Origin: Candidatus Woesearchaeota archaeon
GTDB lineage: Archaea; Nanobdellota; Nanobdellia; Woesearchaeales; UBA12501
Assembly (NCBI GenBank): GCA_016180035.1
Contig: JACPCA010000008.1
Location: forward strand, 1-48,250
Length of the DNA stretch: 48,250 nt
Direction: 5' to 3'
The stretch's first letter is position 1, and each line of letters begins with the position of its first letter. Below, in pieces: positions 6,656-48,250 of this stretch. A program made the position numbers and the translations under genes. The notes beneath the pieces are model-generated. The model was not told the origin of the DNA and ran no database searches. It was given only the letters and a program-made list of their open reading frames with translations.

Positions 6656-7099
6656 CTATATTTCCAACATCAAGCGGGAATGTGTCGAGCTTGAACGAAC
6701 CATTCCCTTCACACCATTGAGTGAGAATGCCGCGCTGCTGGCCGTCCGAAGGGGATGGCTGCGAAGATGGCTGCTGATGGTCACCAAGCTCGCCAAGATA
6801 TTGGCCTTGTCGTCTTCTGTACGCCCATTTTCTTCGGTATGCCTATTGTTGGCTGCATTTTCCTGCCGGGCAGCATCTTGTTGGGCTGATGGAACAGGAG
6901 GAATCCACTCCCTGCCCTCTCCTTGGCCATCAGCGTGCGGAGCAGAAGTTGGAACACCCCCTGCATCAGCAGGCGCCATCGGCGGCGGAGGCATGAACTT
7001 CGGGAAGGGTGGTGGAGAACAGCCAGGAAGAACAGAGAAAACAACAAGGAGAAGAATGAGGGTGGGGAGGATGGCGTGAAGAATACCTTGTTTGTTCAT
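6656..7099 (-). CDS. Lipoprotein-type signal peptide plus Pro-rich linker fragment, probably the 5' part of the 5649-6641 gene
   Basis: MNKQGILHAILPTLILLLVVFSVLPGC, then a P/A/G-rich linker. The last ~50 codons look non-protein-like, and another frame is open across them. Confidence 0.45.
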   Translation of the reverse strand: MNKQGILHAILPTLILLLVVFSVLPGCSPPPFPKFMPPPPMAPADAGGVPTSAPHADGQGEGREWIPPVPSAQQDAARQENAANNRHTEENGRTEDDKANILASLVTISSHLRSHPLRTASSAAFSLNGVKGMVRSSSTHSRLMLEI

Positions 7100-7181
7100 G
7101 GTGCATCATAATCCAAGAAAGAGTATAAAAATGTTGTGGGGTTCGTCACAAACTAGGTTAGGCAGTACCTTACCATACCAC

Positions 7182-7190
7182 TTTATATAT
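7182..7190 (+). promoter_or_regulatory. TATA-like box (TTTATATAT) for the geranylgeranyl reductase gene
   Basis: Lies 22-30 nt upstream of the ATG at 7212. The same spacing recurs at several genes in the window (leaderless pattern). Confidence 0.4.
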
Positions 7191-7211
7191 CTTCTTCTCT
7201 CCCACTGGAAG

Positions 7212-8399
7212 ATGAGCTCGTCTGAAAAACAAGTCACTATCGTCGGCGCAGGCCCTGTTGGATGCTACCTTGGGCATCTCCTCTCCAAAGAGGGAGTTCC
7301 GACAACTATCATCGAAGACAATGCTGTCATCGGCAGCCCAGAGCAATGTACTGGCCTGTTCAACATCAATCTCGACGAGTTCATCAAGCCAAAGAAGGAC
7401 CATGTGCTCAACATGATCAAGGGCGCTGCGCTGTGCTGCGGCAAAGCATCAGTAGAGATCAAGGCAAAAGAAGAGAAAGCGTATGTGTATGACCGCATCA
7501 AGTTTGACCAGTACCTTGCCAGCCTTGCCATGGCATCCGGTGCAGCCATCCTGACCAAGACGCGCTTTGCCAGCTACACGAACCATACTGCTGCCGGCCA
7601 CACTGCTGCTGCCAACACCGCCAGGTCTTCAGCAGGGAGAAACAACTCTTCTATCCAGCTTCAGCTTCTGTCAGAAAACAAGCCGATAACCCGCGAGACG
7701 AGCCTGCTGGTCGGCGCTGACGGCCCCAACTCTGCTGTCGCCAAGAGCGCCGGCATCTTCGGCAGCCGCAGGTACTGGATCGGCAACCAGGTCTTCCTGG
7801 CCATGAAAAAGCCGTGGTTCGATAAGGAGCTCGCGTACTTATTTTTTGACAAGAAATATCACGAGGACTTTTTCGCATGGGTTGTTCCGATGGATGAATA
7901 TACAGCAAAGGTCGGCACGGCAAGCTATAAGAACTCCGCAGCATATCTTGGATCATTTCTCAAGGACAAGTTTGCCGGCGCAACGATTATCGGACGGCAA
8001 GGAGGGCTTATCCCCTATTATGATCCTGCCCTTCCATGCCAGAAAGAAAACGATGTTTTTCTCGTCGGTGACGCTGCTTTTCAGGTCAAGGCAACAACCG
8101 GCGGCGGCATCGTGCCGGGCTTCGCAGCTGCGCAACAGCTCAAGGACGCCGTCGCCCATGAAACGTATGATTATGGCAAGCGCATGGCAGCAGTCCGGCG
8201 CAATCTCTGGCTCCATCTGATGATGAGAAAGAAGATGAACAGGTTCTCGGACAAGGATTACGAAGAGCTGATCTCCACGCTCGGCAGGCCGCCTGTCCAC
8301 CGCATCCTTGCCGCGCAGGGGGACAATGATTACCCGCACAAGTTTCTTCTGAAGATGCTGTTCCATGCGCCGTCGCTGATGAAGTTTTGTGTGAAATAA
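7212..8399 (+). CDS. FAD-dependent geranylgeranyl reductase family protein
   Basis: VTIVGAGPVGCYLG dinucleotide-binding motif, LVGADGPNSAV, GDAAFQVKATTGGGI. The start was moved from the track ORF (7092) to the ATG at 7212, because 7092 overlaps the divergent gene start. Confidence 0.8.
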   Translation: MSSSEKQVTIVGAGPVGCYLGHLLSKEGVPTTIIEDNAVIGSPEQCTGLFNINLDEFIKPKKDHVLNMIKGAALCCGKASVEIKAKEEKAYVYDRIKFDQYLASLAMASGAAILTKTRFASYTNHTAAGHTAAANTARSSAGRNNSSIQLQLLSENKPITRETSLLVGADGPNSAVAKSAGIFGSRRYWIGNQVFLAMKKPWFDKELAYLFFDKKYHEDFFAWVVPMDEYTAKVGTASYKNSAAYLGSFLKDKFAGATIIGRQGGLIPYYDPALPCQKENDVFLVGDAAFQVKATTGGGIVPGFAAAQQLKDAVAHETYDYGKRMAAVRRNLWLHLMMRKKMNRFSDKDYEELISTLGRPPVHRILAAQGDNDYPHKFLLKMLFHAPSLMKFCVK

Positions 8400-8450
8400 G
8401 TTCTGTGTGAAATAGCTTAGCCTACCACAAATGTTTGTTAGGCAAAAAAT

Positions 8451-8622
8451 AACAAAACAGGCCAAAGGCCTGTAACGGGTTGCGGCGCCGCCACGCATCG
8501 TTATAACAGTCGTGTCCATTTTTCTTGCTCAACACTGGTGTAGAGCAAGAAAAATGGAATTGATGAGAGGTCTGCAATTGTGGCGGCGCGTGTGTCCCGT
8601 TACCGGCTCTGCCGGTTTTGTT
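8451..8622. repeat. Family II structured palindromic element, copy 1
   Basis: Order: AACAAAAC, hairpin AGGCCaaaGGCCT, GTAACGGG, GGCGCCGCCAC, central hairpin CCATTTTTCTTGCTC/GAGCAAGAAAAATGG, GTGGCGGCGC, CCCGTTAC, hairpin CCGGCtctGCCGG, GTTTTGTT. Lies between convergent genes. Confidence 0.8.
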
Positions 8623-8720
8623 AAACGCTCTTGCCGTTAAGAAACACGAAAGAAAGGATAAGAAAATAATTGACCGAGATGACAGCGCAAAAATACCGAT
8701 CAATACCCTTTTAATATCGA

Positions 8721-9554
8721 TCAATACACCTTCAATACCTTTCGCATCCCCATACTGGTGATGATAGAGAAGATGATATACGCCGCAAGCCAGCCTGGCT
8801 GCCAGCCGAAGATGCTGAGCGCACCGAATGGCTTCACCGGCTTGTTCTTGATGATGATCTGAAACACTGCCCCGTCAGGATCGAGATATCCTGCCTTGGA
8901 CGTGTACAGCCAGCCGAAGGCTGATGCAAAAAATCCTTTCTTGCTCTTGATGGTCGGCGAATAATCACGCCAGCTGCTGATCTTGACCTCTTTCGAGTGC
9001 AGCTCGCCGCCGACGTCAAACACGACATCGTATACTCCAGTATCCCCTTGAAGCGTGAACGGCGTCGATCTGCCAGTCACGTTCTTTGCTGCATCACCGA
9101 TGACCGTGATCCCTGTGGGCGGTTCGGCAGTGATCGTGCCGCGAAAGCCTTGCTCAGTAGCAATGACGACATCAAACGGCTCTCCTGCTGCCAATGGAAG
9201 ATACGCAATATTCGCCTGCATCCAGCCAAAGATGAGAAGCAAAGGGATAATGGTATAAAAGGTGGACTTGAACGAGTGTTTCATATATTCCATGTTTTTC
9301 TGCATGAAGACCTTCTGCTTGTCCAGCGCTTTTTTAGGATCGTCTTTCTGGAATTTCTTGACATCCTCCTGCAGCTTCTTCAAGTCCTCCTTGAGGCTTT
9401 TCATGAGCTGCTGGTTCGTCGTCCATTTGTAGACGAGCGTGATGATGGCAGAAAGAACAACGGACAAGATGATAATGCCTAAAAGATAGTTCAGCCTCAG
9501 CACTGGGCCGAGCAAGGCGTTCATGACCGGATCAAGGATGTTCAGAAGCCCCAT
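8721..9554 (-). CDS. DUF106/EMC3/TMCO1-type membrane insertase (archaeal Oxa1 superfamily) with a large inserted domain
   Basis: TM1, then a K/E-rich coiled segment (LKEDLKKLQEDVKKFQKDDPKK..QKNMEYMKHSFK), then TM2 and a C-terminal TM. Sits in the conserved position downstream of secY. Confidence 0.7.
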   Translation of the reverse strand: MGLLNILDPVMNALLGPVLRLNYLLGIIILSVVLSAIITLVYKWTTNQQLMKSLKEDLKKLQEDVKKFQKDDPKKALDKQKVFMQKNMEYMKHSFKSTFYTIIPLLLIFGWMQANIAYLPLAAGEPFDVVIATEQGFRGTITAEPPTGITVIGDAAKNVTGRSTPFTLQGDTGVYDVVFDVGGELHSKEVKISSWRDYSPTIKSKKGFFASAFGWLYTSKAGYLDPDGAVFQIIIKNKPVKPFGALSIFGWQPGWLAAYIIFSIITSMGMRKVLKVY

Positions 9555-17943: not shown

Positions 17944-18207
17944 GGCTCTGTCTCGAATCTCCTTATGGGCGGTGCTGTTGCCAAGCGCCGTGCCCGATGT
18001 CCTAAGCGAATGCTCGGATACTTGGGATACGAGCGATTGGCAAGCGCGAACAGAGCGCAGCAGCACCGCCCATTTCGGGAGGGGAATGGCACTGCTGCGC
18101 TCCGTTCACCTATGGAATCGGCCATGAAACCGAGTCTTTCATTCATTGACGGGCAATGGATAACTGCACTTGGCAGCAGTGCCATTCCCGACATTCGGGA
18201 CAGAGCC
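17944..18207. mobile_element. MITE-like element, family I, copy B, inserted in the rpl14-rpl24 spacer
   Basis: TIRs GGCTCTGTCTCGAAT (17944-17958) and ATTCGGGACAGAGCC (18193-18207), 14/15. Perfect 9-bp direct repeat TTCCTCAGC at 17935-17943 and 18208-18216. Confidence 0.8.
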
Positions 18208-31565: not shown

Positions 31566-31580
31566 CTTTGTGGTTTAGGG

Positions 31581-31877
31581 TAATACTTCAGCTTTGTGAA
31601 GCGTTACCGTCCAGGGGTCGAGCCTCTTCCATGTCTTTGTCGAGACTGACAAGGGGGACGCCCCATCCGGGGAATGTCAGTTCTCAATACCCTGAGCGAA
31701 GGCGAGAAGACGGTAACGCTTCACAATGAAGCAGGGAGAGCATCTTCGAAATCCTCGACGTAAAATGGAGGGCGCTGCGTCCCCGGATGGGGCATCCCCC
31801 CGCAACGCGCCCGACAAAGAAACGAGAGGATTTCGACCTCAATGATGCTCTCCCTGCTTCAGGAAGCTGAAGTATTA
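31581..31877. mobile_element. Dimeric MITE-like element (two inverted ~130-nt structured modules)
   Basis: Perfect 14-bp TIR TAATACTTCAGCTT (31581-31594) / AAGCTGAAGTATTA (31864-31877). 9-bp direct repeat TGGTTTAGG at 31571-31579 and 31878-31886. Confidence 0.8.
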
Positions 31878-31881
31878 TGGT

Positions 31882-32932: not shown

Positions 32933-33086
32933 GGGGGCGTAGTATAACCTGGCTAGAATGGCTGGCTCCAGCAATGGAGCGATGAGCTGCAGAATATCTG
33001 CAGCGATGATGAAACGCTGTGGTCTGTTGAAGCTTTCGCTTCAATGAAGAGACCAGCAGGTCTGGGTTCGAATCCCAGCGCCCCCA
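32933..33086 (+). tRNA. tRNA-Trp (CCA) with 80-nt intron at canonical 37/38
   Basis: Acceptor GGGGGCG/CGCCCCC, anticodon stem GCTGG/CCAGC, loop CTCCAG|A with CCA at 32968-32970, T-arm CTGGG-TTCGAAT-CCCAG, discriminator A. One A-A mismatch in the D stem. No encoded CCA. Confidence 0.75.
32972..33051 (+). ncRNA. tRNA-Trp intron carrying box C/D-like guide RNA elements
   Basis: AUGAUGA at 33006-33012, GCGAUGA at 32979-32985, AUGAAGA at 33044-33050. Short antisense elements to anticodon-loop positions 32-36 and 38-41. Confidence 0.5.
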
Positions 33087-33094: not shown

Positions 33095-33144
33095 AGTTGA
33101 AAAGATTATTGTTCTACTGATTGGGGGAATTAAGAGAAGTAAAT

Positions 33145-33326
33145 AACAAAACCGGCAGAGCCGGTAACGGGTTACGGCGCCGCCACGCATAGGCCTATAG
33201 ATTATGTCCGTTTTTCTTGCCCCTCACTGGTGTAGGGCAAGAAAAACGGAATTGATAAAGTACTGCGATCGTGGCGACGCAGATGTCCCGTGACCCGCTG
33301 AGCGTAGCGAAGCCGGGTATTTTGTT
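33145..33326. repeat. Family II structured palindromic element, copy 2
   Basis: Same architecture as 8451-8622, with compensatory changes: central hairpin CCGTTTTTCTTGCCC/GGGCAAGAAAAACGG, side hairpins CCGGCagaGCCGG and ACCCG..CGGGT. Lies between convergent tRNA-Trp and dnaG. Confidence 0.8.
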
Positions 33327-33423
33327 TTCTGTAGTTCACATCAGTTAGTATAGCACATCTTAGAATAAACACAGGCCTGACAGTATCACAAAAAGAAAAT
33401 GAAAGAAAAATAACAGCTGATCC

Positions 33424-34737
33424 TTACGCCAGCTGCTCTGCGGTCAGCACCTGGACTGGAGAGGCGCCAAGCTTGGCGTCAGTTCCCATCCCGATGAGGA
33501 ATTTGATCCTTGACTTTTCTGCAGTCTGGACGATTTCCCGATCGACGCTGCCGTCAAAGATGACTGCATAGACGCCGGAACCAAGGCTGTTCACCGTCGG
33601 GACAAGCTCTGTCAAGGGGACTTTTCCGAGAATGTTGAGCTTTTCATCAAGGATGAAGGCTCCCCTCGTCCCGATCAGGTCGTCGAGCATTCCCTTAAAC
33701 GTGCTTTTTTCTGTTGAAGAGATAGCGGCGCGGGAGCGCGGCGGCGGATAAGCTCCACGGGAAGACGAAGCAGGCGGCTGCCCATTTGCCATCGAAGGCG
33801 GCGGCGACTGCCCCTGCATTGGCGGCCTTGCGAACCTTGACGGTGCCTGCTGCGGCTGCTGCTTGTTGAAGCTGCGCTGCGGCTGCTGGGACATCCGTGA
33901 TGAACTATCCATCTCCTGCTGGAACTGTTCTGCCGTCATCTTGGACCGGAGAGCCTGATGGATCTCTTTCTTCGTCAGCTCTTCAACCTCTTTTCCGTCT
34001 GGCGCGCTGGTCACGAAATCGATGGAAGCGACCTGGAGGAGCTCCTTGATGTTCAGGATCCCGCCCCTGTCGCCGTCGACAAAGACCGTGACTTCCTTCT
34101 TGCGGCACAGGTCAATGACGGTCTGGCTTGCGGACGTGCCGTTCATGGCGACGACGTTCTTGATGCCGTGCTTCAGCATGGTGAGAACGTCAGCCCTGCC
34201 TTCGACGAGGATGATCTCTTCTATATCGTCGATGCCGGGGCCGCAAGGAAGGCGGTCCTTGCCGTACTCCTGGACTTCCATGACCCTGACAGAGTATGCA
34301 ACTTCATCTGCCAATTCCTGAGAATCCGGCATGACGCTGTCGATCATGTCTCGCAGCAGCTCTTTTGCCCTTGTCACGACAAAGGTGCGCTTGGAAACAC
34401 GGACGTCTTCGATCTTGGTGACGCGTATCCTGGCATTGCAGGGGCCGATGCGCTGGATGATCTCAAACGCGGCAGCGATGATAGCGGTCTCCGCCTTGTC
34501 AAGGGATGAAGGGACAATGATCTCTCCTTTCGTCTTTCCTGTCTTGGTGTCGACGTTGACTTCAATCCTGCCGATCCTTCCGGAACGCTGGAGCTCTCTC
34601 AGCTCAAGGTCAGCTCCGAGAAGGCCTTCAGTCTGGCCGAATACCGCGCCGATAACGTCAGGCGTGTCAACAACACCGTCAATGTCGATCGTTGAGTGAA
34701 TGATATATTTTGCAGATACTGGACTGATCTTTCCCAT
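33424..34737 (-). CDS. dnaG: Archaeal DnaG-type Toprim protein (primase/exosome-associated) with Q/P-rich insert
   Basis: KISPVSAKYIIHSTIDIDGVVDTPDVIGAVFGQTEGLLG N-domain, Toprim LVEGRADV..VDGDRGG. GGAGGG RBS. Confidence 0.85.
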   Translation of the reverse strand: MGKISPVSAKYIIHSTIDIDGVVDTPDVIGAVFGQTEGLLGADLELRELQRSGRIGRIEVNVDTKTGKTKGEIIVPSSLDKAETAIIAAAFEIIQRIGPCNARIRVTKIEDVRVSKRTFVVTRAKELLRDMIDSVMPDSQELADEVAYSVRVMEVQEYGKDRLPCGPGIDDIEEIILVEGRADVLTMLKHGIKNVVAMNGTSASQTVIDLCRKKEVTVFVDGDRGGILNIKELLQVASIDFVTSAPDGKEVEELTKKEIHQALRSKMTAEQFQQEMDSSSRMSQQPQRSFNKQQPQQAPSRFARPPMQGQSPPPSMANGQPPASSSRGAYPPPRSRAAISSTEKSTFKGMLDDLIGTRGAFILDEKLNILGKVPLTELVPTVNSLGSGVYAVIFDGSVDREIVQTAEKSRIKFLIGMGTDAKLGASPVQVLTAEQLA

Positions 34738-35392
34738 GGTATGAACCCTCCGTTGCGTAGTTGGTTATTTTTCACGATAACGCCAAGAGAACAAAGAACA
34801 GAACAGCAAACAGAACAGACCTTTTTCAATCTGTTCTTCACGGTCATAAAAGGATGGATAAAGGAACGTGATAATCTCTTATTTGCTTTCTATTCTATCT
34901 GCTTTCTCTGGGTCTCGTTTTCTTTATGTCTTGAGTAACAATTCTTACAACAATGAATGGAAAATTGTCGCCCGACGTACTAACTCCCAAGCTCATGGCT
35001 TGAGTTTATCGTATGCTCCCTTGGGTACTCTCGTATCGGGCTGGATCGTGAAAGAGTGTCTTATAGTCACCACCAAACAGAATGTTCAGTTCATACAAGG
35101 ACCCATTTTCACAAGAAGACAATAATGGAGCTCCTTAATAAAGCTTATGGATATAAGTGATACAGGGATAATAAGGGTTGGATAAAGAGGTACTGGTAGG
35201 AAATTGCAGATAGAGAACAAAAATTCCCCTGGATAGCCGAAGCCATCCAGAGGAAAGAGGTGTTTAGACATGTTGGGTTAAAAACAGGGTGTTTTTAACT
35301 ACTAAACAGGAAGAAAGAGTTGTATATAAACCTTACTGGCTAAACGGCTCTGAAGAGACAGCTGAAGAGGCGAACCAGCTCATTTTATAAAG

Positions 35393-38389: not shown

Positions 38390-38424
38390 TTTCTTTGTAG
38401 GCAGAGAACGGATTGATAGAAAAT

Positions 38425-38680
38425 AATAAAACCGGCAGAGCCGGTAACGGGTTATGGCGCCGTCGCCTATCACATTGTTCTTCCAATCCATTTTTCTTGC
38501 AATTTGTAACAAAAAATAATAAATGTGCCAGGGGCACAACGGGTTACGGCGCCGCCACGCATGAATCTGTTGTTCATGTCCATTTTTTTGCTCCTCAACA
38601 GTGTGGAGCAAAAAAATGGAATTTATGAAATTAAACGCGACGGCGCGGATGTCCGTTAATGCCCATTTGGCATTTTTGTT
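38425..38680. repeat. Family II element, copy 3: truncated left half (38425-~38500) followed by a complete copy (~38508-38680)
   Basis: The left half is near-identical to the copy 2 left arm. The complete copy has side hairpins GTGCCaggGGCAC and ATGCC..GGCAT, and central hairpin CCATTTTTTTGCTCC/GGAGCAAAAAAATGG. Confidence 0.75.
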
Positions 38681-38833
38681 ATTTTTTGTCCAAACGTGCG
38701 ACACTGAGAAATTTATTACTTTTCACAAAACGAATAATCGCAACATTAATAAAACAGTTGCCTTGAAAAGCGGAGAAGCGCAGCGATCACTGCATCGCGG
38801 CACCGTATAGCTGCTTTACCCCACCAGTTATAG

Positions 38834-41877: not shown

Positions 41878-41902
41878 GGGGTTTCTTTTTTGTTCATTTT
41901 TT

Positions 41903-42067
41903 GGCGCTGTAAAAAATGTCATCCAGATTTTGGTGCGCCGCCGTGACTTTCACTGAAGACTCTTTTTTCTTTCCCACCCTGCAAGGTGAGGTGGGAAAGA
42001 AAAAAGACCTAAACCAAGTTTAGATACGGCGGCGCTATGTATAAGCCATGATATTTTCTACAGAGCC
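41903..42067. repeat. Hybrid structured element, copy 4: family I-like termini with a family II-like core
   Basis: Termini GGCGCTGTAAAAAATGTC and GATATTTTCTACAGAGCC (reverse complement GGCTCTGTAGAAAATATC). Core GCGCCGCCG .. TCTTTTTTCTTTCCCACC/GGTGGGAAAGAAAAAAGA .. CGGCGGCGC. No clear target duplication. Confidence 0.6.
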
Positions 42068-42121
42068 GATAGCACCATAAACTAGTTATACCAGTTATAA
42101 CTTTGATTATACCAAGAGAGT

Positions 42122-42439
42122 ATGGCTCAACAAAGGAAGATAACGTGCGACTGTGGGGGGCATCTCCAAGAACAAGACATGGAGCTAGATCATATCCTCA
42201 CCAAGGCAATGGTGTGTGATGCCTGCCAGTTCACGACCTTGACCAAAGAGCAAGCTAAGGAGTTTCGGAAGCGGGTAGAATTCCACCAGGCGATAGACCA
42301 GGAAAAGCAGGTTATTCAGATAGGGAACAGCATGGGAATAACGCTCCCTGAAAAGTTGCGGGACTATGGCGTCAGCATTGGAAAGAAATTACGGATTGAG
42401 GCCATTGATGACAAGTCATTTAAGGTGGAGATTGTTTAG
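42122..42439 (+). CDS. Zinc-ribbon plus AbrB/SpoVT (MazE-like) domain protein
   Basis: CDCGG..CDAC ribbon. C-terminal IQIGNSMGITLPEKLRDYGVSIGKKLRIEAIDDKSFKVE matches the swapped-hairpin beta-barrel pattern of antitoxin/transition-state regulators. Confidence 0.6.
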   Translation: MAQQRKITCDCGGHLQEQDMELDHILTKAMVCDACQFTTLTKEQAKEFRKRVEFHQAIDQEKQVIQIGNSMGITLPEKLRDYGVSIGKKLRIEAIDDKSFKVEIV

Positions 42440-42477
42440 AGAAATACTGCCACAAGAAGACCTGGCTGCCGTGAGCA

Positions 42478-43242
42478 TTAAAGTTGGATTAGCAAGTCAC
42501 GAACTCTGTGCCGGTTCTCTGTGTAAAAAGAAGATGAGGGTTCTGCACTCTTGTCATATTCTTTAAAAAAAGGGTAGAGCTGGTCTACATCCCCGCAAAC
42601 AAGCCGTGTAATCTCATCGCCGGAACGAACAACAAACGAGGTTCCGTAAAGGATTGGAACGCCTATATCTTTAGCATCAATCCTGCCATATGCTTCTGAC
42701 CTGGTAAACCTAAAAAATGCTTTGTAATCGATGGTACTAAGCACCATGTTCAGTTCGTGAAAATGAGTTGTACGAACAGCATGATCTACCACTGACGTAT
42801 TGTAAGCAGCCAGGACATATTCCTCCACAGCATATTTGCCGCCTTGAGACAGGTCTTCACCGACAAGGCCAAATTCAAAGCCGTGCTGAACAATGAAAGA
42901 GAACCGCGGAACATCAACGTGGCCTCGCACGGAAGCAACATAGAACAGCGTTGGCTCAAATGCCACGGCATGGCCGGAAGCAGGTTCGTTATACCGTTTT
43001 AGGACAGCATGATGTTGCTCGCCACCAGCAGAAAAAGCACCAAGAGGATAGACTCGCCGTGCAGTTCCTCCCTGAAGTGCCAGTTCTTCAAACGCTGAAG
43101 GATCAGCCATAATGGAGCGCGCTAATTCTGCTACATCGGATTCCCTGAACGAAGGAGCAAGTTGTGCTGAAGTTGAAAAGTGATCCACCATTTCTTTGAG
43201 AAACAGGAACTGTCTTATAAAATCATCGAAACCCCACAACAA
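42478..43242 (-). CDS. Hypothetical protein (track start is TTG at 43242; first ATG at 43191)
   Basis: Uninterrupted 254-codon frame with balanced composition. No motif I can assign. Convergent with the AbrB-like gene. Confidence 0.45.
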   Translation of the reverse strand: MLWGFDDFIRQFLFLKEMVDHFSTSAQLAPSFRESDVAELARSIMADPSAFEELALQGGTARRVYPLGAFSAGGEQHHAVLKRYNEPASGHAVAFEPTLFYVASVRGHVDVPRFSFIVQHGFEFGLVGEDLSQGGKYAVEEYVLAAYNTSVVDHAVRTTHFHELNMVLSTIDYKAFFRFTRSEAYGRIDAKDIGVPILYGTSFVVRSGDEITRLVCGDVDQLYPFFKEYDKSAEPSSSFYTENRHRVRDLLIQL

Positions 43243-43277: not shown

Positions 43278-43389
43278 GGTCCCGTAGCCTAGCCTGGATA
43301 GGGCGTCGGCCTTCTAAGCCGAAGGTCGGGGGTTCGAAAACGGTATGCAGAGAAAGTATTATATACCGTCGAAAGTCCCCTCGGGACCG
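43278..43389 (+). tRNA. tRNA-Arg (TCT) with 37-nt intron in the T-loop (59/60)
   Basis: Acceptor GGTCCCG/CGGGACC, D arm GCCT-AGCCTGGATA-GGGC, anticodon arm TCGGC-CTTCTAA-GCCGA (TCT at 43313-43315), T stem GGGGG/CCCCT. Intron 43339-43375, flanked by a canonical bulge-helix-bulge. Confidence 0.8.
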
Positions 43390-47347: not shown

Positions 47348-47370
47348 GGCTCTTGTTTTCTTTAAATATT

Positions 47371-47895
47371 ATGATACCGCTTGAAGATAGAATTAAATGG
47401 GCTGAAAGAGCAGATAAAAATCAAAACCCCGCCAATTTCTTTAGACAGCACTATGATCCTGATACTACAAGAAGCCAATTAGCCAAAAAAGATTGCGCAT
47501 TGTACAGGATATTAAGCAGGAAAAGATTGCTTGATGAGGCCATACCTGATTTTGACCATGAAACATCTGAAAGAGTAAGAAGGGCACGCACAGAAGTAAG
47601 TAGGTTTGGAAATGACCCATTTGCATATTACCAAGAGCATCATGCTGGATTGACAAGAGGACAATTGTGGAAGCAAGACCAAAGCTTGTATCAGAGATTA
47701 AGAAGTGATGGGTTGTTGGACCAGGTTCCTGTTACAAGAACAGATTTTGGAAATGATCCTGTTGCATATTACCAAGAGCATTATGCTGGATTGACAAGAG
47801 GACAATTAAAAAAGCAAGACCCAAGCTTGTATCAGAGATTAAGAAGAAATGGCTTATTGGACAATGTTCCTGCTAAACCTATTAAGATTAGATAG
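47371..47895 (+). CDS. Hypothetical protein made of three ~47-aa repeats
   Basis: Repeats 2 and 3 (47605-47745 and 47746-~47880) are near-identical at nucleotide level: FGNDP(F/V)AYYQEH(H/Y)AGLTRGQL.KQD.SLYQRLR..GLLD.VP. Repeat 1 has diverged. The track start TTG (47353) was replaced by the ATG at 47371. Confidence 0.5.
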   Translation: MIPLEDRIKWAERADKNQNPANFFRQHYDPDTTRSQLAKKDCALYRILSRKRLLDEAIPDFDHETSERVRRARTEVSRFGNDPFAYYQEHHAGLTRGQLWKQDQSLYQRLRSDGLLDQVPVTRTDFGNDPVAYYQEHYAGLTRGQLKKQDPSLYQRLRRNGLLDNVPAKPIKIR

Positions 47896-48250
47896 GGATA
47901 CCTGGAATTGCCCCCTTTCTCGTTTTTAGGGCTCCAAATTTATTGAATATGATCCTTGTTATACTCAATTTTTGCGTTGCCTTTCAGGTACATTCCTCGT
48001 CGGAAAACCGAGACTTCTTAACGGAACTAACTTCGTTTAGCGAGGAGAAAAACGGAAAAATAATTCAATTGAAACTGAATCTAACGTATGCTAAACAAAA
48101 TTTTTTATTACTTTAACGGTGGGGTTCCGTTATTAAAGACTATACTTTGAAAAAAATAACATTTTTTGGGGGAAATCGGCTATCCCCCCGCTAAAGCGTG
48201 GGGGTCTTTATCGCCGATTTCCGGTCAGATGAGGGTTTTTTGTTTGGTGC

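Follow-up and report, generated by a model that had tools for sequence, protein, structure and literature searches.

Quasi-palindromic interspersed repeats, probably of MITE type, in a core-genome region of a Woesearchaeota archaeon

Introduction

[quoted passage not shown] They are non-coding, multi-copy elements of 100–250 bp in AT-rich intergenic DNA, with terminal inverted repeats of 20–45 nt, a very stable stem-loop and possible effects on neighbouring transcripts. Here we describe a repeat family with the same general properties, family A, and a relative, element B, in a 48,250-nt stretch of Candidatus Woesearchaeota archaeon DNA (contig JACPCA010000008.1, positions 1 to 48,250; hereafter the window). 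Family A differs from the bacterial elements in that it shows no direct repeat at its ends, in that each of its inverted repeats contains a GC hairpin that is hypervariable yet always self-complementary, and in that its host is a DPANN archaeon and no parent insertion sequence is known. MITEs typically occupy AT-rich intergenic DNA, where they form stable stem-loops, and as they grow old their direct repeats disappear (PMC10969869). QMITE2, with inverted repeats of 23–29 bp, a core of 113–145 bp and direct repeats of 7–9 bp (PMC10969869), is a close match to two further elements of the window, C and D.

Two other groups of bacterial repeats invite comparison. SPRITE elements resemble family A in being interspersed, terminator-like units of a hairpin and a T-run that are modular, clustered and inserted beside or into one another (PMC10969869). 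They are, however, bacterial, and occur where hairpin-dependent intrinsic termination is an established mechanism; they share no sequence similarity with family A, a palindrome with two ends in which the terminator-like modules point in both directions. The REP (repetitive extragenic palindromic), BIME and REPIN sequences, mobilised by RAYT transposases of the Y1 type, share with family A an inverted pair of small GC hairpins that can fold into one long hairpin, the lack of a target-site duplication, placement after genes and a hairpin structure kept despite substitutions. Compared with these, family A has hairpin stems of only 5–7 bp, set within conserved arms of 45 nt, lacks a conserved GTAG-like tetranucleotide and has a large structured centre, and its genome has no known RAYT gene. 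With a motif tool, palindromes of REP-like form were also reported from archaea (PMC12306157). MITEs have been counted there as well: a Woesearchaeal genome holds 105 MITEs per Mb, among the highest archaeal densities, and Candidatus Altiarchaeum hamiconexum 146 per Mb (PMC11602168). That census found its elements by inverted plus direct repeats (MITE-Tracker), whereas family A is without a detectable duplication.

Results

High copy number and empty sites in relatives

Family A and element B are probably non-autonomous, quasi-palindromic interspersed repeats of MITE type, bounded in family A by imperfect terminal inverted repeats of ~45 nt. An earlier sequence-only reading of the window had offered a MITE and a REP-like structure among several explanations, and a repeat of MITE or REP type is supported by a metagenome depth 10–60 times that of the flanks, by contig breaks, by empty sites in relatives, by a truncated copy and by sibling elements with 9-bp duplications. 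The elements are small (165–191 nt) and their translations matched no protein; six-frame open reading frames (ORFs) are short and broken, and the frames are inconsistent between copies, so the elements are non-coding. Within a copy, the two ends are inverted repeats of each other with 75–80% identity over ~50 nt, and dispersed copies whose presence varies between related genomes occur, with 3.5 copies of family A and one of B in 48 kb.

The sole source of near-identical DNA was a set of four groundwater metagenome runs (SRR121134xx series), the assembled contigs of which were mapped onto the elements, with copy number taken from summed contig depth. The flanks have a depth of 10–13x (13x around 8445–8624 and 7–12x around B), compared with 100–658x inside A and B, with maxima of 400x in 8445–8624, 658x at 38426–38446 and 430x in 41930–42067. 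Contigs break in the elements, and many different sequences continue past 8444/8445, 8622–8624 and 42067/42068; the boundaries of the first family A copy were set by such loose ends of other copies at 8444/8445 and 8622–8624, and metagenome contigs likewise place the right boundary of B at 42067/42068. When the whole window was scanned, unique DNA had a depth of 9–17x and large spikes occurred at repeat elements only, with mild rises at conserved genes and a tRNA and a weak rise in the last 300 nt of the contig. The depth of the elements amounts to tens of copies for each genome equivalent, to which related community genomes may contribute.

The sequence-only reading had proposed a search for empty sites, which was carried out. 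Two syntenic relatives, with Top6A proteins 83% and 86% identical to that of the window, keep the gene order DnaG..RIO1..KH-Top6B-Top6A, and their spacers between the KH and Top6B genes measure 6 nt and 53 nt, versus 444 nt in the window. The elements are missing at the syntenic sites, and neither nhmmer nor the covariance model found a copy in ~40 kb of the relatives' DNA. The elements are therefore not ancestral. Beyond these relatives, family A had no sequence match in any collection searched: exact-pattern scans of genome and metagenome collections returned chance matches in GC-rich bacteria only, two viral-contig scans followed by nhmmer gave no copy, and blastn gave no match in plasmid and phage collections. 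When every open six-frame piece of the elements was joined into one chimera and compared with 5.8 billion proteins, in search of spurious gene calls on other copies, nothing scored. The organism's PAN ATPase was traced to runs of the SRR121134xx series, to which the Logan contig with the window's Top6A also belongs, and none of three short Logan contigs obtained in this way contains an element.

Anatomy of family A

The long-range stems of family A are formed by the two imperfect terminal inverted repeats of ~45 nt, each with an A/T-rich tip, a small GC hairpin and then GTAACGGG..GCGCCGCCAC. Five short local hairpins branch from them: each terminal repeat contains one, two more flank the centre, and the fifth is central. 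From outside to inside, the A/T-rich outer stem (TAACAAAAC / GTTTTGTTA; 12–16 nt in copy 3) is followed by a GC side hairpin of 5–7 bp, the stem GTAACGGG / CCCGTTAC, an internal loop, asymmetric and conserved, of TTRC facing RNRTGT, and the stem GCGCCGCCAC / GTGGCGGCGC; one inner hairpin per strand then leads to a perfect 16-bp central hairpin with T5–7 on its 5′ arm and A5–7 on its 3′ arm. T-runs do occur on both strands, as the sequence-only reading claimed; the two local hairpins that flank the central one had gone unlisted.

In copy 1, all on the + strand, the 5′ arm of the outer stem (TAACAAAAC, 8450–8458) forms the A/T-rich tip of the terminal inverted repeat and pairs with 8615–8623 (GTTTTGTTA) in nine Watson-Crick pairs out of nine. 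Side hairpin 1 (8458–8472) reads CAGGCC-AAA-GGCCTG and is followed on the − strand by TTTGTTATTT, which makes it terminator-like. The conserved trunk of the left arm (8472–8495), GTAACGGG-TTGC-GGCGCCGCCACG, pairs imperfectly with 8579–8603. The central perfect hairpin (8515–8558) consists of TCCATTTTTCTTGCTC, a 12-nt loop and GAGCAAGAAAAATGGA, its 5′ arm carrying T5 and its 3′ arm A5, and side hairpin 2 (8602–8616), ACCGGC-TCT-GCCGGT, is followed by TTTGTTA.

Copies of family A and their sites

Three full copies and one half copy of family A lie on the + strand, at or near the positions given by the sequence-only reading. Copy 1 (8445–8624; 180 nt; 183 bits with the covariance model) lies between the convergent genes for a geranylgeranyl reductase (7092–8399, +) and an EMC3/YidC-like protein (8721–9554, −). 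Copy 2 (33140–33330; 191 nt; 181 bits with the same model) is flanked by an intron-containing tRNA (32933–33086, +) and the gene for DnaG primase (33424–34737, −). What had been taken for one copy at 38425–38680 is a 5′ half copy (38418–38508; 49 bits with nhmmer), which starts 29 nt past the stop codon of the KH-protein gene and is cut inside the 5′ arm of the central hairpin, directly abutted by the full copy 3 (38509–38689; 181 nt; 168 bits with the covariance model). Copy 3 lies 145 nt upstream of Top6B (38834), and its outer inverted repeat, ACAAAAAATAATAAAT / ATTTTTGTTATTTTTTGT, is the longest.

The window contains three instances of a 25-nt core, AACGGGTTRCGGCGCCGCCACGCAT, versus zero expected by chance. 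With nhmmer, the three full copies reach E = 1e-50 to 1e-55 on the + strand and 66–84 bits on the − strand; the higher score on + means that family A has a defined orientation, identical in all copies, though it is quasi-palindromic. The common + strand orientation claimed earlier is thus borne out, as are the start of the elements 26–59 nt past the 3′ ends of genes or a tRNA (geranylgeranyl reductase, intron-containing tRNA, KH protein and Top6A) and the position of two of them between convergent genes. Single-strand folds of A and B have z-scores of −6.3 to −9.3 relative to shuffled sequence, with RNA and DNA parameters alike.

Element B (41903–42067) starts 26 nt past the stop codon of Top6A. 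It has other sequence than family A and the same layout, with a stem GCGCCGCCG/CGGCGGCGC, two inner hairpins, a central T6/A6 hairpin and the termini GGCGCTGTA...TACAGAGCC. The family A covariance model detects it with 40 bits (E ~1e-6) on the + strand and 36 bits on the − strand. The earlier description as a related copy holds for the design; by its termini, element B belongs to a separate high-copy family.

One metagenome contig (7.8x) joins 41878 to 43231 and skips 1352 nt, the matching side being only 30 nt long. The skipped segment contains element B and two hypothetical ORFs (42122–42439, +; 42478–43242, −), neither with a Pfam match. In the relatives, Top6A is directly followed by tRNA genes. 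The contig and this gene order together suggest that the segment may be an insertion present in only part of the population.

Local hairpins are kept perfectly, long-range stems are not

The sequence-only reading held that the paired segments differ between copies and always stay complementary. Every pair was tabulated, and the claim holds for the local hairpins, of which two are at the sides, one or two are inner and one is central; of their 103 pairs, 102 are Watson-Crick and one is G·U. It fails for the long-range stems, in which 9 of 85 pairs are non-Watson-Crick. Two of the three copies contain such mismatches, e.g., GTGGCGACGC and GCGACGGCGC against GCGCCGCCAC or CCCGTGAC against GTAACGGG, and none of the changes is compensated. 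The difference between the two classes in non-Watson-Crick pairs (1/103 versus 9/85) has a Fisher p = 0.006. All differences between copies in the central hairpin, i.e., two substitutions and one paired one-base deletion, are matched on the other arm, and the paired deletions at 8524 and 8549 have identical depth among the other metagenome copies. Over the whole census, ~95% of the pairs are Watson-Crick and 5 G·U pairs stand against 4 A·C pairs, so that neither strand is favoured; in this the elements resemble inverted-repeat DNA and not wobble-tolerant RNA.

The possibility that the arms are simply homogenised copies of each other had also been raised. Left ends are 88–90% identical to the left ends of other copies, compared with the 75–80% (~50 nt) between a left end and the reverse complement of its own right end, and the arms are accordingly two conserved end types and not homogenised copies, a conclusion with which the uncompensated mismatches of the long stems agree. 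Each type derives from a master copy's ends. Over TAACAAAACCGGCAGAGCCGGTAACGGG (29 nt), copy 2 has at its left end the same sequence as the reverse-complemented right end of copy 1, and the half copy differs from it at one base. Module variants also occur among the loose ends of other copies, i.e., a TTTT loop on a CCGGC/GCCGG stem, the module GCCC-ACAA-GGGC and a 26-nt long form in several versions. Hairpin modules thus appear, on sequence comparison, to move between positions and copies, identical ones occupying a left end in some copies and, in inverted form, the right end of another. The truncated half copy that abuts a full copy, together with these module variants, reflects decay and rearrangement.

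Sibling repeat families in the window

Element C (228–443; 216 nt) has the inverted termini GGCTCTGTAGAAAGTCT / AGACTTTTTACAGAGC, on either side of which lies an exact 9-bp direct repeat, AAAAGAAGC (219–227 and 444–452). Its interior, in which a GC stem and one side hairpin accompany an A5/T5 hairpin at the centre, follows the same design as A and B, and its metagenome depth is ~5–15 times that of the flanks; by these features it is assigned to the canonical MITEs. Element D (17944–18207; 264 nt), inside the ribosomal-protein cluster, has the inverted termini GGCTCTGTCTCGAAT / ATTCGGGACAGAGCC, an exact 9-bp repeat TTCCTCAGC, a DNA fold with z = −10.8 and a depth of ~500x versus 12x in unique DNA. 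A second copy at 3–218, 81–83% identical, is cut by the contig start. Both C and D are multi-copy in the metagenome. Element B combines the terminal motif of C and D with the core of family A. The termini of B, C and D (GG..CTGT..AAA) may recall the inverted repeats of the IS6 family, which are accompanied by 8-bp duplications.

Family E (31580–31880) is a nest of inverted repeats of 18–27 nt in the spacer between a 1853-aa ORF and an AAA_18 kinase gene. Its depth reaches ~800x inside versus 10x in the flanks, and elsewhere in the metagenome it forms head-to-tail copies with CTCAAAAAC between them; Rfam gave no match to it. In total, the window holds ~8 repeat elements in 48 kb, which fits the published census of 105 MITEs per Mb in a Woesearchaeal genome (PMC11602168).

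The host and other features of the window

The window is a stretch of archaeal core genome, with genes for geranylgeranyl reductase, SecY, a ribosomal-protein cluster, DnaG, RIO1 and a KH protein, together with Top6B, Top6A, FEN1, TYW2, tRNA-Cys and the intron-containing tRNA. Its Top6A is at most 86% identical to any public protein, and homologues of Top6A and PAN have 76–86% identity to proteins named Woesearchaeota or Nanoarchaeota; these matches assign the host to an uncultured archaeon of the Woesearchaeota/Nanoarchaeota (DPANN). The coding share of the window is ~88%, and every element insertion is intergenic.

Several further features were recorded. The intron-containing tRNA (32933–33086, +) has a total length of 154 nt with a long intron; it scores 42 bits with Rfam and was missed by ARAGORN. 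A weaker tRNA-like match (24.8 bits) is located at 43278–43334, directly upstream of tRNA-Cys. The strongest individual terminator-like hairpin of the window (35224–35255, −), a 14-bp stem TTCCTCTGGATGGC-TTCG-GCTATCCAGGGGAA followed by TTTTTGTT, lies in the 35126–35392 spacer upstream of RIO1 and outside every repeat family seen in the window. The last ORF (47353–47895) contains a tandem repeat of 130 nt, 88% identical, at 47605–47875. The final 300 nt of the contig (47951–48250) are non-coding, have a metagenome depth of 30–48x and include a GC hairpin at 48185–48204; they may be another repeat that ended the assembly.

Discussion

Assignment to the MITE type and proposed mechanism

Several observations weigh against the assignment of family A and element B to the MITE type. 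No convincing target-site duplication was found at any copy of A or at B. The sole candidate is a 7-mer in low-complexity sequence, TTTGTTA near copy 1, which was rejected since it would put GTTTTGTT outside the element, yet every copy has GTTTTGTT. Neither a transposase nor an autonomous partner was seen in the window, and no empty-site allele from the same population was seen among the metagenome contigs. Only 3.5 copies of family A are readable in full, and the copy number is a summed contig depth that possibly includes related genomes. The helices of the pair census were delimited by eye. Finally, the five local hairpins are perfectly kept despite complete turnover of their sequence, which is not explained by transposition alone. 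Such upkeep needs either selection, whether on termination or on an enzyme's ability to recognise the hairpins, or a mutational mechanism templated by them, and the two options are not exclusive; hairpin-templated repair of quasi-palindromes would act on close arms and not on arms 85–170 nt apart.

By its size, inverted ends, copy number and distribution, family A is still probably of MITE type despite the lack of a duplication. Its copies would be moved in trans by a transposase that, because none is present in the window, is presumably encoded elsewhere in the genome, and would persist only in AT-rich spacers just past gene ends, with hairpin modules probably exchanged between copies. A copy would probably stop archaeal RNA polymerase arriving from either side, by local hairpins that each have a T-run on one strand, and termination both ways would allow it to be tolerated, and might even render it useful, where genes are tightly packed.

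A possible transfer as single-stranded DNA

The lack of target-site duplications also fits a different mode of movement, in which the elements would be carried as single-stranded DNA by an HUH/Y1 enzyme that recognises hairpin shape and not double-stranded inverted repeats, either as a REPIN-RAYT-like system or as a palindrome-associated derivative of IS200/IS605. In its favour, hairpin structure stays while sequence turns over; the two side hairpins form an inverted pair as in REPINs, and the four independent sites of A and B and the half copy share one orientation in a stretch with a monotonic cumulative GC skew, although four sites are weak statistics (p ~0.125). IS200/IS605 is moreover the most widespread family of archaeal insertion sequences (PMC13343696). 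The ends of IS200/IS605 elements are, however, without long terminal inverted repeats, whereas those of family A are inverted over ~45 nt. The left boundaries show no conserved tetranucleotide, the left flanks ending in TAGGC, GAAG, ATAG and TGTA, and no conserved GTAG-like motif was seen. The siblings C and D, the termini of which are shared by B, carry duplications of 9 bp, as is typical of DDE transposases. Neither a Y1 nor a RAYT gene was seen in the window. We therefore regard this mode of movement as unlikely.

Termination as a possible function of the elements

Archaeal termination requires oligo-T and no hairpin, which bears on the proposal that the elements exist mainly as bidirectional terminators or insulators of the host, or as stabilisers of mRNA 3′ ends, such that selection and not mobility explains their conservation and placement. 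The sequence signal itself is there. In a pattern match, the six side hairpins of family A score where a T-run follows, and they are among the top terminator-like sites of the window, facing outward on both strands; the central hairpin carries T5–7 on both strands, and the inner hairpins precede this central T5–7. A copy would in this way present two modules of hairpin plus oligo-T to a polymerase from either side, and terminator activity is plausible on these grounds. The placement of all copies within 26–59 nt of gene or tRNA ends, two of them between convergent genes, would suit such a role, and stems kept while their sequence is free are what would be expected of terminator stems. Close relatives, however, are without elements at the same sites, one site separates the otherwise contiguous KH and Top6B genes, and both Top6A and the tRNA are already provided with T6 runs of their own, located upstream of the element. 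Termination, furthermore, needs no sequence-level conservation of 45-nt arms. That the elements are primarily host terminators is thus quite improbable.

Two mixed accounts have, taken jointly, a slim chance of being right. The elements could be a mobile bidirectional terminator cassette on which the host depends, in which case perfect hairpins and T-runs would be selected in a lineage that uses hairpin-assisted termination, and transposition would distribute terminators. Or they could form an archaeal single-stranded DNA system of the REPIN-RAYT kind, which would account for the missing duplications, for hairpins conserved in structure only and for the uniform orientation.

RNA genes and other identities

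A structured small RNA had been suggested by the sequence-only reading. This identity, as a multi-copy gene with a fold of two stacked four-way junctions kept by RNA selection, could draw on the very stable predicted folds (z = −6 to −9), on conserved unpaired segments that orient the element (CGCAT..ATGTCC on one strand of the internal loop, GGAATTGAT on the other) and on one inner hairpin with U·G where other copies have U-A, but it is very hard to sustain, since only tRNAs pass the Rfam gathering score in the window and no Rfam match overlaps the elements at E ≤ 1, the elements are missing in syntenic relatives, the long-range helices (stems P1–P3; 9 uncompensated pairs and no compensated pair in a small sample) show no covariation, G·U is as rare as A·C as in strand-independent DNA, the reverse strand folds and scores nearly as well, copies are truncated and no shared promoter motif is evident. 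Four other candidates were rejected: an integron attC site (core motifs missing, flanking genes housekeeping), a bulge-helix-bulge intron (no 3-4-3 motif), a C/D-box or K-turn (UGAUGA in one copy only) and a small peptide gene (reading frames unconserved).

Implications for DPANN genomes

Family A adds a new sequence family to a lineage for which a high density of MITEs had already been reported, and no new mechanism is established by it. The genomes of DPANN archaea are tiny and dense in genes, yet in this one at least five families of palindromic repeats take up a few percent of a core-gene region. Such repeats fragment DPANN assemblies and give rise to spurious ORFs and to misleading structured-RNA candidates, and they separate genes that are contiguous in relatives, e.g., those for the KH protein and Top6B. 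If the modules of hairpin and T-run do terminate transcription, these insertions would constitute a natural experiment on the gain of terminators in archaea.

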